A stretch of DNA of 17,287 bases, from the IMG/VR virus record IMGVR_UViG_2713896795_000005, positions 1 to 17,287 of that record; one strand, written 5' to 3'. Below, one piece after another: positions 3,715 through 13,475 of the stretch. Source of the DNA: a virus. Its lineage: Duplodnaviria; Heunggongvirae; Uroviricota; Caudoviricetes. Position 1 is the stretch's first letter. Each line of letters begins with the position of its first letter. The notes below the pieces were generated by a model that was not told the DNA's origin, ran no database searches, and was given only the letters and a program-made list of their open reading frames with translations. Made by a program: the position numbers and the translations under genes.

Positions 3715-3748
3715 TATCAAATTAAATCTTTATAAGGAAATTAAAATT

Positions 3749-3919
3749 ATGGCTATGGATATTATGTCAGGTGCAAACCTAAAAGTAGAAGTAGGTACAA
3801 GTGCTGGTAACACACTAGCGACCGACTTTAAAGAAGTTCCCGAAGTTGCTAGCTTTACTACTTCTGGCTTTGAATCAGTTGTTATAGACGTAAAAACTTT
3901 CAACTCTTCATATAACCGT
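3749..3919 (+). CDS. Exon 1 of intron-containing small tail protein (putative major tail/tube protein by position)
   Basis: ATG 3749 preceded by AAGGAA (3734-3739). Unspliced reading stops at TAA 3923-3925 after 58 codons. Homologous to the fibre N-terminal domain (EVASFTTSGFESVV vs [13 protein letters not shown]). Confidence 0.6.
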
Positions 3920-4189
3920 GGATAAAATAGCGGCCTATAGTAGCAATACTATTTGAATAACTCCTTTAATTGCTGGAAACTCTTATTATTAAGTTAAAGA
4001 CAATCAGCAGCGAAACCATATTATATGGAACGTTCAACGACTAGCCGAAAGGCGTAGGGATTAAGTAATCTCGAAATGGGGAGAATCCGAAATATCGGAT
4101 TGTGATATAGTCTAATCTGTATAGAAATATGCAGCAGTCATAAAGACCGATGACGATGTAGTATTAACGCCACTACATGAATAAAAATG
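3920..4189 (+). ncRNA. Group I self-splicing intron, ~270 nt, no homing endonuclease ORF
   Basis: Conserved core elements: P AATTGCTGGAAAC (3968-3980), Q AATCAGCAGCG (4002-4012), R GTTCAACGACTAG (4032-4044), S GATATAGTCTAA (4104-4115). P4 pairing TGCTG/CAGCA and P7 pairing GACTA/TAGTC. 5' exon ends in U3919 with a candidate guide GCGG (3930-3933) pairing CCGU. Intron ends ...AAAAATG (G4189), like the T4 td intron 3' end. In-frame stops sit at both intron ends (TAA 3923-3925, TGA 4178-4180). Confidence 0.75.
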
Positions 4190-4477
4190 AAATTGCTCGG
4201 CACAAAATCGATCCCTGATATTGAACTAAGTGTTAACTATCTTGCGGATAATACAGTACACCAACAATTAGAGACTCTCGCAGACGAGCAAAAACGCTGT
4301 CAGATTCGTCTAAGCTACTATACTGATGCAACCCACACTACTGGTTTTTATGTAGTTTATACTTGCTTCGTTAGTTCCACTACTATTGATGGCGACAAAG
4401 ATGAAGTAGTAACTAAAGCATTCAACCTAGCTGTAGACGGTGCAGCCGTTGAATCAGGTACACTACCTTCTATCTAA
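4190..4477 (+). CDS. Exon 2 of intron-containing small tail protein
   Basis: Same frame as exon 1; removing 3920-4189 (270 nt) joins ...SSYNR to KLLGTKSIPDIELSVNYL..., collinear and gap-free against the fibre N-domain (...[24 protein letters not shown]...). Shared GDKD-x-VVTK motif near the C-terminus. Stop TAA 4475-4477. Confidence 0.6.
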   Translation, partial: KLLGTKSIPDIELSVNYLADNTVHQQLETLADEQKRCQIRLSYYTDATHTTGFYVVYTCFVSSTTIDGDKDEVVTKAFNLAVDGAAVESGTLPSI

Positions 4478-4485
4478 AATAAATA

Positions 4486-4520
4486 AGAGTGTTAGCTTAT
4501 GGTTAGCACTCTATTTTTTT
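4486..4520 (+). terminator. Rho-independent terminator
   Basis: 11-bp stem AGAGTGTTAGC / GTTAGCACTCT (two G-U pairs), 5-nt loop, then A plus T7 (4514-4520). Confidence 0.7.
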
Positions 4521-4542
4521 AACTTTTAATAAGGAATACACA

Positions 4543-4845
4543 ATGAATCTACAAGACATCCTAAAAAAACTATCTCCAAAAAAACATACTTTTAATATTG
4601 AAGGTGCAGAATTTTTTATTCACCGTGCACGTTCTAAAGATATTGAAGCATTAAACAAGCCACTAGAGGCAATCATGGTTTGTACTTGTGATGAAAATGG
4701 CGATCCAATCTTCAGTACCGAAGATATCGAAGGACGTATTAATCTAAATGCTCTTGATTCAGAATATGTATCAAAAATCTATCTAGCTATTATTGAATTG
4801 TATAAAGACCATTCTGATATACAGGACGAAATCGAAAAAAAATAA
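4543..4845 (+). CDS. Tail assembly chaperone (lambda gpG-like)
   Basis: 100-aa acidic ORF immediately upstream of the tape measure gene, with AAGGAA SD, ending in a poly-A slippery tract. Called from synteny and the frameshift arrangement. Confidence 0.6.
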   Translation: MNLQDILKKLSPKKHTFNIEGAEFFIHRARSKDIEALNKPLEAIMVCTCDENGDPIFSTEDIEGRINLNALDSEYVSKIYLAIIELYKDHSDIQDEIEKK

Positions 4846-5240
4846 TAGAGGATCATGAATTACGCACCTATCTAGATTTAATTACTACTAATGGGATTAG
4901 TATTAGTGAGATGGAAAATTTAGATCCTGATTTGTTTATGGCTATTAGGATCTATAAATCCTGTATGAGTAGTAAGGCAGAAAAAACGCAGATGTTATAC
5001 CACGCCCATACATGCTACCTAATGGCTATGTACTCTAATATATCAACTGATTATAAAAAGGGTCTATCTTATACTGATTTTGACTTTCTGGATATTCTTG
5101 ATGATTCTCTAACAACTAAAGAACGTGCGGAAAAGAGAAAACAAAATTCAATCAAAAAGCAATCTAACGATATTGCACAAATGGGAGAATATATTAAAAA
5201 CCTAGCTCAACAAGGAAGTAAGAAAGATGGCAAAAAATAA
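4543..5240 (+). CDS. GT-like frameshift fusion chaperone (G-like ORF joined to ORF 4911-5240 by -1 shift at ~4842)
   Basis: Frame of ORF 4911-5240 has no stop between the slippery site and 4911. Its 3' end overlaps the tape measure start (5227). This is the conserved G/GT arrangement of long-tailed phages. Confidence 0.5.
4836..4842 (+). promoter_or_regulatory. Programmed -1 ribosomal frameshift slippery heptamer A AAA AAA
   Basis: Heptamer lies in the zero frame of the G-like ORF two codons before its stop (4843-4845). The -1 frame is open from the TGA at 4815-4817 through to 5240. Confidence 0.55.
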
Positions 5241-12000: not shown

Positions 12001-12262
12001 CCTGGCTGTAACCAATTCAAAAATTGCCAATGCAAGTATCAACGAAGCTAAGATTATCGATGCAAATATTACCTCAGCTAAGATTGCAAATACTATCCAG
12101 AGTAATAACTATGTTGCAAACGTTCAAGGCTGGCAAATTAATAAAGCTGGTACTTTCTATATTAATGGATCTGGCGGTACTGGTCGAATGGTAATCAGTA
12201 ATACAATGATTCAAGTATATGATAACAATGGTACGTTACGTGTGCGTATGGGACTATGGTAA
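9059..12262 (+). CDS. Tail tip / central fibre protein (lambda J-like host specificity protein)
   Basis: Recognisable resemblance to lambda gpJ: [13 protein letters not shown]...[11 protein letters not shown] region, a fibronectin-III-like segment ([26 protein letters not shown]...YYVYYK) and a C-terminal region with [14 protein letters not shown] / [22 protein letters not shown] 9059 has AGGAG 8 nt upstream; the track's 9050 start is GTG. Confidence 0.8.
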
Positions 12263-12275
12263 TAAATAAAAGCGT

Positions 12276-12305
12276 AGGTGAGGGAATTATCCCCTACCTT
12301 TTTTA
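12276..12305 (+). terminator. Rho-independent terminator after the J-like gene
   Basis: Imperfect hairpin AGGTGAGGGA / TCCCCTACCT followed by a T7 tract (12299-12305). Confidence 0.6.
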
Positions 12306-12318
12306 AAAGGATAATATT

Positions 12319-12522
12319 ATGTTTCAATATCTAAAAGACGAAGATGGCGTAATCAAAGCAGTTCTACTAACTAATATTTGTGAAATTGCCGCATCAGGTG
12401 ATGACTTTCTAATCATTAAATCAAATAACGTATCGTGGGAAGAACTACCACAACGTCTAATGGTTAATATGGATGCACTTTCGGGTAAAGATGAAGACAT
12501 TCAGGAAGGAGATCAAGAGTAA
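12319..12522 (+). CDS. Hypothetical small acidic protein
   Basis: 67-aa ORF with AAAGGA SD; its stop overlaps the next start (TAATG at 12520-12524). Confidence 0.5.
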   Translation: MFQYLKDEDGVIKAVLLTNICEIAASGDDFLIIKSNNVSWEELPQRLMVNMDALSGKDEDIQEGDQE

Positions 12523-12818
12523 TGGCACAAGGTCTACAATGCTGGAATGCAGCAGGGCAGATAGTAGTAGATTTGGGTGATTATAATATGCGTTATATGG
12601 GGGCAACTTCATTGAACATTGCATCAGGCACTACAAATACCTGGGGTGTTGCTTTCGGTGGTATGCGTACAACTGGCTGGCTAGCCGTTCCACGTTCCGT
12701 AGCATGGGGTACAGAATTTTACTGTATTCCTGGTAATGACGCATTTACAGTACGATATACTCCTACTGGTTATATCTATGCACAAACTGTAATTTTCGAT
12801 GTTTACTCATTTGGATAA
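12522..12818 (+). CDS. Hypothetical protein, paralogue A of a two-member family
   Basis: N-terminus GLQCWNAAGQIVVDLGDYN and C-terminal AFTVRY match the next ORF (GFNVYNAYGKLTVDSDN ... SFTVQY). Confidence 0.55.
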   Translation: MAQGLQCWNAAGQIVVDLGDYNMRYMGATSLNIASGTTNTWGVAFGGMRTTGWLAVPRSVAWGTEFYCIPGNDAFTVRYTPTGYIYAQTVIFDVYSFG

Positions 12819-12827
12819 GGATTATCT

Positions 12828-13475
12828 ATGTCAGGTTTTAATGTTTATAATGCGTATGGGAAACTCACTGTAGATTCTGATAATAGAGCTACTCTAATTT
12901 CTCAAGTTAAGGATATGGGCGGTCTAATTGATGTCGGTGCCTTCAATATTCCATCTGCTTTCGGTAATGGGTCTACACTAGGTTATATTGGCCTTAATTT
13001 CTTCCCCGCCGATGGTCTACGCTGGTTTCAACTATACAGTGATGGTAGATACTGCTTTCCTGGTGCATCGCTCTATGAAGCTGGTACAGGCCGTTTTATG
13101 CTATCTAATAATACTAATGCAATGACGTCTGGTTATCTTGATGTGTTCAATGGTGGCGGTGGTTTGATCTGGAGTGCTGCCAGTGCTGGTACTATGCCGC
13201 GTATACTGGACTTTTTCACAATTCCGGCTGGTCATGATCTGGCAAGTCCTATCACCTTCAATACCAATTTTGCTAATCCGTGGATTTGCATTAGTCAGTG
13301 TCCAGGTAACGTAACAGATGACGGTACTGTAGGTGGTTATTCCGGTATCATGATTCGTCGTAATAGTGCTACATCATTTACAGTACAGTACGTTAACAAG
13401 AACCAGATGAACTACCCCACGGCAATGGGATCATCACAAGTACAAATCGCACTAGCTGCCTTTACTGGTTATTAA
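12828..13475 (+). CDS. Hypothetical protein, paralogue B (longer, Gly-rich insert)
   Basis: 215-aa ORF with AAGGA SD, sharing N- and C-terminal motifs with 12522-12818. Confidence 0.55.
   Translation: MSGFNVYNAYGKLTVDSDNRATLISQVKDMGGLIDVGAFNIPSAFGNGSTLGYIGLNFFPADGLRWFQLYSDGRYCFPGASLYEAGTGRFMLSNNTNAMTSGYLDVFNGGGGLIWSAASAGTMPRILDFFTIPAGHDLASPITFNTNFANPWICISQCPGNVTDDGTVGGYSGIMIRRNSATSFTVQYVNKNQMNYPTAMGSSQVQIALAAFTGY

Follow-up and report, generated by a model that had tools for sequence, protein, structure and literature searches.

What do the two short motifs that recur between the late genes of this locus do? The window, by which we mean the whole stretch of 17,287 nucleotides analysed here, is a prophage remnant with 38% G+C in a host that the mdtG/msyB flank identifies as E. 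coli. In it, a motif containing TAAGGA precedes several gene starts, and the 8-mer TATAAATA lies between the tape-measure gene and the gene that follows. A sequence-only reading had suggested that both may be phage-specific late expression signals, the second one resembling the late promoters of phage T4. Here, we show that TAAGGA is an ordinary Shine-Dalgarno (SD) site, and that TATAAATA is one form of a box that is conserved in sequence, position and spacing within a family of related elements, that has no −35 element and that resembles T4 late promoters. On balance, we consider it likely that TATAAATA is a minimal, −10-only promoter of T4 late type, for which a gp55-type factor would be supplied by the element or by a helper.

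The low-G+C elements of the family combine a lambda-type terminase, portal and tail genes with a serine recombinase. Their hosts, all Enterobacteriaceae, are E. coli and Pseudocitrobacter; where one early protein has homologues, these point to Klebsiella, Enterobacter and Cronobacter as further hosts.

TAAGGA and translation initiation

The extended motifs quoted in the sequence-only reading before the starts at 3749, 4543, 7492, 12319 and 12828 are all present; the TAAGGA sites at 14309 and 15955 were absent from that reading. The sites, together with an intron in the first of the genes, are as follows.

3731–3742, + strand: TATAAGGAAATT, with TAAGGA at 3733–3738, 10 nt 5′ of ATG 3749 of exon 1 of the tail-tube (MTP) gene
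3920–4189, + strand: group I intron that interrupts the tail-tube gene, the gene with TATAAGGAAATT as its SD
4528–4539, + strand: AATAAGGAATAC, with SD TAAGGA at 4530–4535, spacer 7 nt, ATG 4543 of tail assembly chaperone G
5212–5216, + strand: SD AAGGA, spacer 10 nt, ATG 5227 of the tape measure protein
7476–7487, + strand: TATAAGGAATTT, with SD TAAGGA at 7478–7483, spacer 8 nt, ATG 7492 of the distal tail protein Dit
12305–12315, + strand: AAAAGGATAAT, with SD core AAGGA (not TAAGGA) at 12307–12311, spacer 7 nt, ATG 12319
12815–12825, + strand: ATAAGGATTAT, with SD TAAGGA at 12816–12821, spacer 6 nt, ATG 12828
14309–14314, + strand: SD TAAGGA, spacer 5 nt, ATG 14320 of a SegE-like GIY-YIG gene
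15955–15960, + strand: TAAGGA, spacer 7 nt, ATG 15968 of a 28-aa hydrophobic ORF, a putative gene

Motif enrichment, which had been named as a check on the proposal, is found near gene starts but not across the window as a whole. TAAGGA occurs 10 times on the + strand and never on the − strand, compared with 7.3 and 3.9 copies in dinucleotide shuffles, which is not significant. Six of the ten copies, however, fall within −22..−4 of the 19 gene starts (266 of 34,564 possible positions; hypergeometric P = 4e-11), and TAAGGA and ATAAGG are the top hexamers of these regions. The spacers from TAAGGA to the start codon measure 5–10 nt, and the energies of the SD duplex with GAUCACCUCCUUA are −6.0 to −6.2 kcal/mol. 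The 3′ end of E. coli 16S rRNA reads ...CCUCCUUA; its last six bases, 3′-AUUCCU-5′, are the exact complement of TAAGGA, which forms positions 1–6, the 5′ part, of TAAGGAGGTGATC, the full complement of that 3′ end. An SD is lacking at ATG 4187 and ATG 4911, neither of which is a real initiation site: the former lies at the 3′ end of the intron and is no gene start because the intron splits the tail-tube gene, and the latter belongs to the T part of the G-T frameshift product.

TAAGGA is also found 5′ of host genes (alkA, the ibs toxins, relE/parE-type genes), of P2-like prophage genes and of T4 genes, and in the complete 33-kb relative L012 it precedes 2 of 13 early-region genes versus 3 of 26 late genes. 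Because host, P2-like, T4 and non-late genes carry it as well, TAAGGA is an ordinary SD site, neither phage-specific nor late-specific, and its proposed role as a phage-specific late signal has to be given up. TAAGGA(A/T) would pair with the last six bases of the host 16S rRNA and so start translation of single cistrons, the A+T-rich element using that end of the full complement UAAGGAGGUGA which is rich in A and U. At times the site also provides the stop codon of the previous gene; the TAA of the SD at 12816–12821, for instance, terminates gene 12522–12818. Both the spacing and the positional enrichment in the window are as expected of E. coli SD/anti-SD pairing. Host and P2-like genes usually extend the motif to TAAGGAG(G), whereas the element, as fits its G+C content of 38%, ends it at TAAGGA(A/T). 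At homologous starts in relatives the AGGA core alone is kept, except at the tail-tube gene: before MTP, cTTATATAAGGA[AT]ATA is conserved family-wide, and TTATATAAGGA 5′ of this gene is more conserved than pairing can explain. For the SD, our analysis agrees with textbook knowledge and alters none of it.

The box, its copies and its conservation

The placement of TATAAATA between a terminator and the next gene proved correct, as the hairpin at 7427–7451 is real and ATG 7492 follows. Copies of the more general form NATAAATA (7-mer core ATAAATA) and the hairpins next to them are listed below.

3668–3679, + strand: two overlapping AATAAATA (3668/3672) at the fibre-gene stop codon; a hairpin, 3684–3715, begins 4 nt further on
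4478–4485, + strand: AATAAATA between the MTP stop codon and the terminator hairpin 4486–4512, adjoining both
7427–7451, + strand: G+C-rich, terminator-like hairpin with a 9-bp stem, 3′ of the tape-measure stop codon and followed by TTTATTCG
7455–7462, + strand: TATAAATA box, 29 nt 5′ of the Dit ATG; putative T4-late-type promoter with a −10 element only
12261–12268, + strand: AATAAATA at the stop codon of the J-like gene, followed by hairpin 12276–12299 and a T tract
13494–13501, + strand: CATAAATA box, 35 nt 5′ of ATG 13537 (DUF2730, holin/spanin-like gene)
14279–14286, + strand: CATAAATA box, 33 nt 5′ of ATG 14320 (GIY-YIG gene); the CAT within it, read on the − strand, is the start codon of lysozyme
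14315–14322, − strand: CATAAATA box, 33 nt 5′ of the lysozyme start at 14281, overlapping the GIY-YIG start codon; in the sister element L002 the sequence at this place is TATAAATA

The 8-mer TATAAATA is not enriched in the window, with 1 copy versus 2.3 expected, which bears out the caution that a lone 8-mer is weak evidence. The copies of NATAAATA number eight, and all eight lie outside the interiors of coding sequences (P about 9e-5 given the 31% non-coding share of A/T-only 7-mers; P = 5.6e-10 against all positions). Four of them stand 29–35 nt 5′ of a start, namely those of Dit, the holin-like gene, the GIY-YIG gene and lysozyme. The AATAAATA copies can be read in two ways. The pair at 3668–3679 is either a box with a 5′-UTR hairpin or an A tract belonging to a terminator on the − strand; its hairpin lacks a T tract on the + strand, and the SD and the MTP start come next. 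The copies at 4478–4485 and at 12261–12268 are each ambiguous between a box and an A tract belonging to a terminator that acts in both directions. The hairpin at 7427–7451 is not listed by a consensus terminator scan; relatives have the same hairpin at the tape-measure/Dit site, with clearer T tracts.

We compared about 50 related ~30-kb elements, with Dit protein identity down to ~41%. Throughout, the layout of the tape-measure/Dit spacer is kept as hairpin, T tract, [T/C/A]ATAAATA(C/T), 20–33 nt and ATG, while the flanks diverge, and relatives whose Dit identity runs from 97% to ~41% carry TATAAATA or a form that differs from it at one base. Of 38 distinct sequences upstream of Dit, 31 have TAAATA 20–33 nt 5′ of the ATG, and 34 do after correction of three miscalled starts; the members being related, these conservation counts are of non-independent events. 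In 28 representative loci ATAAATAC, TAAATACC and TATAAATA rank among the 8-mers with the strongest enrichment in intergenic DNA, 36-, 35- and 21-fold, compared with 6–8-fold for ordinary AT-only 8-mers. ATAAATA is the top sense-strand 7-mer of co-directional spacers, where A-rich 7-mers generally show a strong sense bias, and it lies most often 25–30 nt from the ATG.

Other genes follow the same pattern. Relatives' homologues of the gene at 13537 have ATAAATA[CT] 29–36 nt upstream, and the endolysin gene, on whichever strand it lies, always has a box 27–35 nt upstream; as the sole opposite-strand gene of its block, it needs a promoter of its own. Within the divergent lysozyme/GIY-YIG spacer, the box of either gene, read on the opposite strand, coincides with the SD, spacer and ATG of the other, and the conservation of these two boxes could stem from this complementarity.

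A proposed T4-type late promoter and its rivals

T4 late promoters consist of an 8-bp box with no −35 element, which varies most often to A(−13) (PMC2988020); in the T4-like cyanophages S-PM2 and Syn9 the late-promoter motif takes the form NATAAATA, known from sequence only (PMC2984593). In the T4 genome we measured TATAAATA 14–28 nt 5′ of late-gene ATGs, directly 3′ of a hairpin and T tract; upstream of gene 9 the sequence reads ...ctccctttttcttTATAAATActataaactcaTAAGGAaaccgctATG, and back-to-back divergent pairs of boxes occur at genes 4/53 and 26/51. The window and its family share with T4 the identical 8-bp sequence TATAAATA as the only conserved element, the same tolerance at the first base, the lack of a −35, a leader-length position in both orientations (14–35 nt 5′ of the start codon, often directly after a hairpin and T tract), back-to-back pairs in divergent spacers and a TAAGGA-type SD downstream. 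They differ in that the carrier is a ~30–33-kb integrative siphovirus-like element rather than a T4-like myovirus, that C or T is preferred right after the box and CATAAATA is common, and that the promoter role is here a prediction from sequence. The relaxed first position and the placement 5′ of structural genes are also seen in the cyanophages; phages of the S-PM2/Syn9 type, however, encode g55, g33 and g45, which the element apparently does not.

We infer that the NATAAATA box is a promoter, which RNA polymerase would read by way of a gp55-type specificity factor. Placed 20–35 nt 5′ of Dit, the holin-like gene, endolysin and the endolysin-divergent gene, and of further genes in relatives, each NATAAATA(C/T) box would be a minimal promoter consisting of a −10-type element alone and akin to the late promoters of T4 (TATACATA, given as an example only, is a point-mutated form of TATAAATA). 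Transcription would halt at the hairpin 3′ of the tape-measure gene and restart ~6 nt past the box, yielding a leader of ~23 nt that bears the TAAGGA site.

Which factor could read the box? Neither PHROGs nor Pfam gave a match to gp55, gp33 or gp45 among the window ORFs and the early ORFs of L012, and in a phmmer search with T4 gp55 against 2812 ORFs of the loci covered, the best E was 1.1. In L012, neither a clamp nor a clamp loader nor a gp33-like gene was found, and the best-conserved early protein (227 aa) has a confident predicted fold with no PDB match and no likeness to the gp55 fold. The T4-late-like character suggested for TATAAATA is supported in form, through family conservation, the recurrence of CATAAATA and the T4 architecture, but has no counterpart in proteins, as neither a gp55-family factor of the element's own nor the gp33 and gp45 clamp needed for activation were found in L012 or the window ORFs. 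The gp55-type factor would be a novel element protein or would act in trans from an infecting T4-like phage; it may thus come with superinfection.

Alternatively, the box could act in RNA, as an RNase E-type AU-rich processing site 3′ of a protective hairpin, as an AU-rich enhancer bound by the ribosomal protein S1, or as half of a stem in which the downstream SD and AUG are hidden. In the RNase E-type version, a long late transcript would be cut into segments that differ in stability. The position of the box after a stable hairpin and 20–30 nt before the initiation region would suit such a signal, and lambda-like late operons usually give a single long transcript. ATAAATACC and the GGTATTTAT(G) downstream of it are perfect reverse complements in several relatives, and in some the box is complementary to the GGTATTTATG initiation region that follows; in the Dit leader of the window, however, the predicted pairing is weak (−0.5 kcal/mol for 7468–7510; z = −1.2 for the whole spacer). 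The strict conservation over 7–8 nt, with no covariation, contrasts with the loose preferences of RNase E and S1. In addition, the minus-strand lysozyme box has no evident upstream promoter from which it would be transcribed, and the strong T tracts between hairpin and box in relatives should end most transcripts before the box is reached. We consider an RNA-level signal unlikely.

Even less likely is a host sigma-70 promoter with a degenerate or extended −10 (TATAAA or TATAAT), served by an activator of the element or simply weak, which would require no T4-type mechanism. A perfect TATAAT at 7461–7466 does overlap the box in the window and its nearest relatives, but most relatives lose this overlap and read TATAAATAC(A/C), and neither TATAAATA nor the conserved (N)ATAAATA can supply both A(−11) and T(−7) of the sigma-70 −10 element. 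Activator-dependent late promoters with a poor −35 are common in temperate phages, and no gp55-type factor was found. Against this, no TTGACA-like hexamer lies 16–19 bp 5′ of the boxes, where site-specific hairpins or coding sequence are found instead, with neither a common hexamer nor a common activator-binding sequence; no TGn stands 5′ of the box, and a sigma-70 promoter scan gave no candidates in the box-bearing spacers.

Lastly, that TATAAATA at 7455 is functionless, an A+T-rich string retained through shared ancestry or a terminator-flanking A/T tract, is very improbable: its low count in the window, the very A+T-rich intergenic DNA and the ability of hairpin-adjacent AATAAATA copies to pair with a U tract would fit, but the Pseudocitrobacter relative keeps TATAAATA despite a wholly different stretch of ~27 nt between box and ATG, the core, with a constant spacing from the ATG, survives where Dit identity has fallen to ~41%, and ATAAATAC tops all 8-mers in intergenic enrichment.

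Possible helper phages and the biology of the family

If the box is a T4-type late promoter, does the element depend on another phage? Its tail, lysis and other genes might stand on T4-type late promoters and stay silent until a T4-like phage brings the late machinery and possibly the replisome, making the element a hitch-hiker, a satellite or a suicide device directed against T4-like phages. We put this forward tentatively and regard it as doubtful, since the evidence is circumstantial: the complete copy L012 has no recognisable replication or sigma genes; the elements carry T4-style mobile DNA (a SegE-like GIY-YIG gene, an HNH gene and group I introns) and have a T4-like base composition; and the GenBank record 'Escherichia phage DCP80', which contains two full sets of structural genes, joins in one assembly a T4-like myovirus and a ~29.5-kb member that carries hairpin-TTTT-TATAAATA 5′ of almost all its tail genes.

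If gp55 of a T4-like phage reads the box, the logic would be that of P4 with the Ogr/delta of P2, of PICI and of PLE, in which a resident element is tied to the late transcription apparatus of an incoming phage. Those satellites lack most virion genes and answer DNA-binding activators or derepression, whereas the present element has a full set of head, tail and lysis genes and would answer a replacement sigma-like factor, the link to a helper being hypothetical. It also resembles the lambda late operon (pR′ with Q antitermination) in the order of its morphogenesis genes, the G-T frameshift and the internal terminator-like hairpins, but differs in having conserved promoter-like boxes after the internal hairpins, and no Q-like gene was recognised in L012.

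To our knowledge, T4-type late promoters have so far been accompanied by T4-type machinery (gp55, gp33, gp45). Here, a putative minimal promoter box of T4 type is conserved in widespread, uncharacterised small prophage-like elements that have no recognisable machinery of this kind, and annotators gain a concrete promoter model for the family. If a protein of the element replaces gp55, it would be a new sigma-like factor; if the elements instead heed incoming T4-like phages, this would be a new form of phage-on-phage parasitism or defence.

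A conserved box before tail and lysis genes

Between the tape measure gene and the gene for the distal tail protein (Dit), the window carries the box TATAAATA (7455-7462; core ATAAATA), in which the sequence-only reading had seen a possible T4-late-like signal of phage-specific late expression. Over the whole window the 8-mer is not significantly over-represented (one copy against 2.3 expected). With the first base relaxed (NATAAATA), the window holds eight copies, none of them within the interior of a coding sequence. The gene set is that of a siphovirus tail and lysis block.

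Genes of the window
32-3676: fibre, N-terminus tail-tube-like, C-terminus Peptidase_S74
3749-4477: tail-tube gene, intron-split
4543-5240: chaperone G with its -1 frameshift extension T
5227-7425: tape measure protein
7492-8046: Dit, followed by two tail proteins
9059-12262: J-like tip protein, followed by three small genes
between these small genes and the endolysin: DUF2730 membrane protein
13829-14281, minus strand: T4-lysozyme-family endolysin
14320-14757: SegE-like GIY-YIG gene; in addition, small ORFs

Box sites of the window
7455, 13494 and 14279, plus strand: NATAAATA 29-35 nt upstream of starts
14322, minus strand: NATAAATA 29-35 nt upstream of a start
3668/3672, 4478 and 12261: at stop codons, immediately 5' of hairpins

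Near-identical copies of the element have TATAAATA in the same position, as do relatives from E. coli and IMG/VR in which Dit is 67-68% identical, and a Pseudocitrobacter prophage (77% Dit identity) retains the box while its ~27 nt from box to ATG are wholly different. A profile-based scan gave 65 loci, about 50 of which share one spacer: tape-measure stop, G+C-rich hairpin, T tract, [T/C/A]ATAAATA(C/T), ~20-27 nt, Shine-Dalgarno sequence (SD) and ATG. Of 38 distinct sequences, 31 have TAAATA 20-33 nt upstream of the Dit start codon, and three more do so once miscalled starts are corrected. The densities of 8-mers in intergenic and coding DNA were compared in 28 representative loci, with both strands pooled.

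Intergenic versus coding density of 8-mers
ATAAATAC: 36x
TAAATACC: 35x
TATAAATA: 21x
ordinary AT-only 8-mers: 6-8x

Because this pooled enrichment is partly due to GGTATTTATG initiation regions, strand-aware counts were made. Among 7-mers in spacers between co-directional genes, ATAAATA is the most frequent on the sense strand (61 copies, against 1 antisense), a sense bias that in such spacers is general to A-rich words; most often it lies 25-30 nt from the ATG. Across the family the box also precedes a holin-like gene, the endolysin gene (on either strand) and the gene diverging from it, as well as a small right-end gene; before the fibre gene it lies inside coding sequence. Enrichment within the window was not borne out, while the presence of TATAAATA holds and the family comparison supports its T4-late-like form, which makes the box appear considerably more interesting than the window alone could indicate and suggests a function.

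Further copies were seen at other places. In L003, a sequence extending past the window's right end, the stretch 17300-17336, 13 nt past that end, has ATAAATAC 29 nt upstream of a 64-aa ORF (MVRVTKKKSQLHLKV...) that matches the methyltransferase N-terminus of the complete relative; this box-gene pair recurs at the right end of several relatives. A capsid-protease fusion gene (L012 14681; L015 889; L028 1634) has an internal box with an in-frame ATG ~30 nt after it, which may serve expression of a nested scaffold or capsid product. The early region contains a repeated element, [T/G]ATAAATAGATATGTAAT..AGTTAATACTCAGCG (L012 4736; L077 2167, 2278, 2587), of which one copy of the element can carry as many as three. 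It differs from the box; a role as iteron, operator or early promoter is possible.

Likeness to T4 late promoters and alternative readings

The T4 late promoter is an 8-bp box without a -35 element; of 50 T4 sites, 32 are perfect and nine begin with A (PMC2988020), and in T4-like cyanophages NATAAATA is the form of the motif (PMC2984593). We measured the T4 late region and found TATAAATA 14-28 nt, mostly 27-28 nt, upstream of late-gene start codons, often immediately 3' of a hairpin and T tract, with a TAAGGA SD after the box at gene 9 and with back-to-back pairs between divergent genes. The arrangement at 7427-7491 and 14279-14322 of the window is exactly that of T4, and upstream of the box no sequence is conserved. 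Judged by sequence, the box looks like a T4 late promoter and is placed like one.

What might read the box? Neither the window nor the complete relative gave a match to the T4 late specificity factor gp55, the co-activator gp33 or the clamp gene (gp45) in PHROGs and Pfam. A gp55, gp33 or sigma factor encoded by the element was likewise set aside: PHROGs, Pfam and phmmer with T4 gp55 all came back empty in a sample that includes the early regions of two elements only, and a conserved 227-aa early protein, confidently modelled, has no PDB match. A 183-aa early protein has too few homologues and a poor structure model. Since a gp55-type factor in the same genome is a defining feature and was sought and not found, we refrain from classing the box among T4 late promoters. 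A literature search for T4-type late promoters in prophages or satellites returned nothing relevant.

A promoter of T4-late architecture fits best, and we consider it the probable reading. As the endolysin gene stands alone on its strand, it must have a promoter, and upstream of it nothing but the box is conserved. Three hairpin-adjacent AATAAATA copies are not clear promoters but ambiguous: pairing with the U tract, as happens in bidirectional terminators, is open to them, and they are possibly terminator A tracts. At the tail-tube gene, however, the hairpin lacks a T tract in every relative, and a start ~6 nt past the box would place this hairpin at the extreme 5' end of the mRNA. A signal acting on RNA, for instance as a processing site, as an enhancer or through a masking stem, we regard as rather unlikely for the box. 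It is unlikely, too, that the box is a sigma-70 promoter with some further help: both key positions of the -10 element cannot be met by the box, and scanning and inspection of the spacers found no sigma-70 promoters. That the box has no function seems very improbable.

The Shine-Dalgarno motif TAAGGA

All strings that the sequence-only reading quoted before late genes are present where it placed them. TAAGGA is not significantly over-represented in the window as a whole (10 copies on the plus strand against 7.3 expected, none on the minus strand against 3.9, by dinucleotide shuffles). Six copies (3733, 4530, 7478, 12816, 14309, 15955), however, lie between -22 and -4 relative to one of 19 starts (P=4e-11); there TAAGGA and ATAAGG are the top hexamers, and AAGGA precedes 10 of the 19. 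The signal is therefore one of position, not of total count. Spacers from TAAGGA to the start are 5-10 nt, and pairing with GAUCACCUCCUUA yields about -6 kcal/mol. Each of the remaining four copies, internal to genes, is a T-AAG-GAx (Lys-Glu/Asp) codon pair. ATG 4187, at the intron 3' end, and ATG 4911, in the T part of the frameshift product, have no SD and are not real initiation sites.

Specificity for late or phage genes did not hold up. In the complete relative, TAAGGA precedes 2 of 13 early-region genes versus 3 of 26 late genes. The motif also stands before genes of the host (alkA, ibs toxins) and of P2-like prophages, and in T4 it is present upstream of 3 of 36 genes of the late region. 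The sister element L002 has two further copies upstream of the window's truncation point, where the TAA is the preceding gene's stop codon. Homologous starts in relatives retain AGGA alone, except that of the tail-tube gene, where cTTATATAAGGA[AT]ATA is kept throughout the family; rRNA pairing does not account for the conserved TATA preceding this SD. The SD observation is correct but ordinary.

A 28-aa hydrophobic ORF (MDYIALGGLLMAFLHLWLVYSIDENKRS; 15968-16054, plus strand) has a perfect TAAGGA 7 nt upstream; the ORF at 16015-16218, which overlaps it and is longer, lacks an SD, and the 28-aa ORF may be the real gene. A hairpin separating the stop codon of the fibre gene from the SD of the tail-tube gene is conserved in the family (for example L021 6456-6517, L030 6245-6294), its loop often carrying an SD-like AAGGA; the window counterpart, TAAGGGAG at 3686-3693, is in the hairpin stem.

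The element family, its mobile DNA and the DCP80 record

The window equals positions 3-17289 of contig LFKC01000010.1 (assembly GCA_001077955.1). Its 38% G+C, well under the host value, had suggested Acinetobacter, a host ruled out by the right flank, E. coli mdtG/msyB. The first ~70-96 nt (within 1-96) are the terminus of an IS3-family element, an insertion sequence that can occupy as many as 41 sites in a single E. coli genome. As this terminus lies at the contig end and homology to L002 starts only at position 70, the window copy is truncated there; the fibre gene's first codons and TAAGGA SD, replaced by the terminus, are intact in L002 at 2539-2556. The fibre protein has 1,214 aa, a first domain paralogous to the tail-tube protein (compare SSYNRKLLGTKSIPDIELSVNYLADN) and a Peptidase_S74 chaperone domain at its end. 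At the end of chaperone G, a slippery run GAA AAA AAA TAA (4833-4845) allows, by a -1 shift, stop-free entry into the frame of the 4911 ORF (4846-5240) and a 232-aa G-T fusion, which is the usual tail-chaperone frameshift.

Relatives are elements of ~27-35 kb in E. coli, Pseudocitrobacter and many IMG/VR contigs. A complete copy of 33 kb (L012, L013) is inserted within yegD of E. coli 02B21CPO003B (NZ_CM151386.1, 1811417-1844640); it has a serine recombinase, a ribbon-helix-helix protein, an HNH gene, methyltransferase fragments and about ten small ORFs with no assigned function, all ahead of the genes for terminase, portal, capsid, tail and lysis.

The tail-tube gene is split by a 270-nt, ORF-less group I intron (3920-4189, plus strand; Rfam RF00028, 81.9 bits over 3910-4134), with splice sites after U3919 and after G4189. 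The spliced protein of 152 aa aligns over its full length (67% identity) with the intronless 152-aa L012 homologue, the junction reading SSYNR|KLLGT. Related introns stand at other positions in L020 (11637-11853, 79% identity to the window intron) and L053 (1776-2009, 69%), so that group I introns seem to move within the family. Free-standing T4-type homing-endonuclease genes also occur (SegE-like GIY-YIG, window 14320-14757; HNH, L012 1507-2106). The low G+C, T4-family lysozyme, introns and homing endonucleases together lend these elements a character reminiscent of T4.

When the phage collection was searched with megablast and blastn, DNA matches among isolated phages appeared at the intron core only (Bacillus SPO1-like and Staphylococcus Twort-like phages). 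A search with the Dit protein matched a single isolated phage, which is also the only isolated 'phage' whose tail module is homologous: GenBank PQ671644, 'Escherichia phage DCP80, complete genome' (L075, L001, L074, L079), a record of 141 kb assigned to Tevenvirinae. Its first ~29.5 kb are a siphovirus-type element of the window's family, with hairpin-TTTT-TATAAATA before tail genes; the remainder is T4-like, though rearranged and scrambled, and brings separate genes for capsid, sheath and fibre (gp23, gp18, gp37) along with duplicated segments, rIIA being present three times and primase twice. An rV5-type identity was ruled out by the T4-type genes; because several of these are duplicated, the record looks like a composite of two entities from one lysate, which at most hints that the family element and a T4-like phage travel together.
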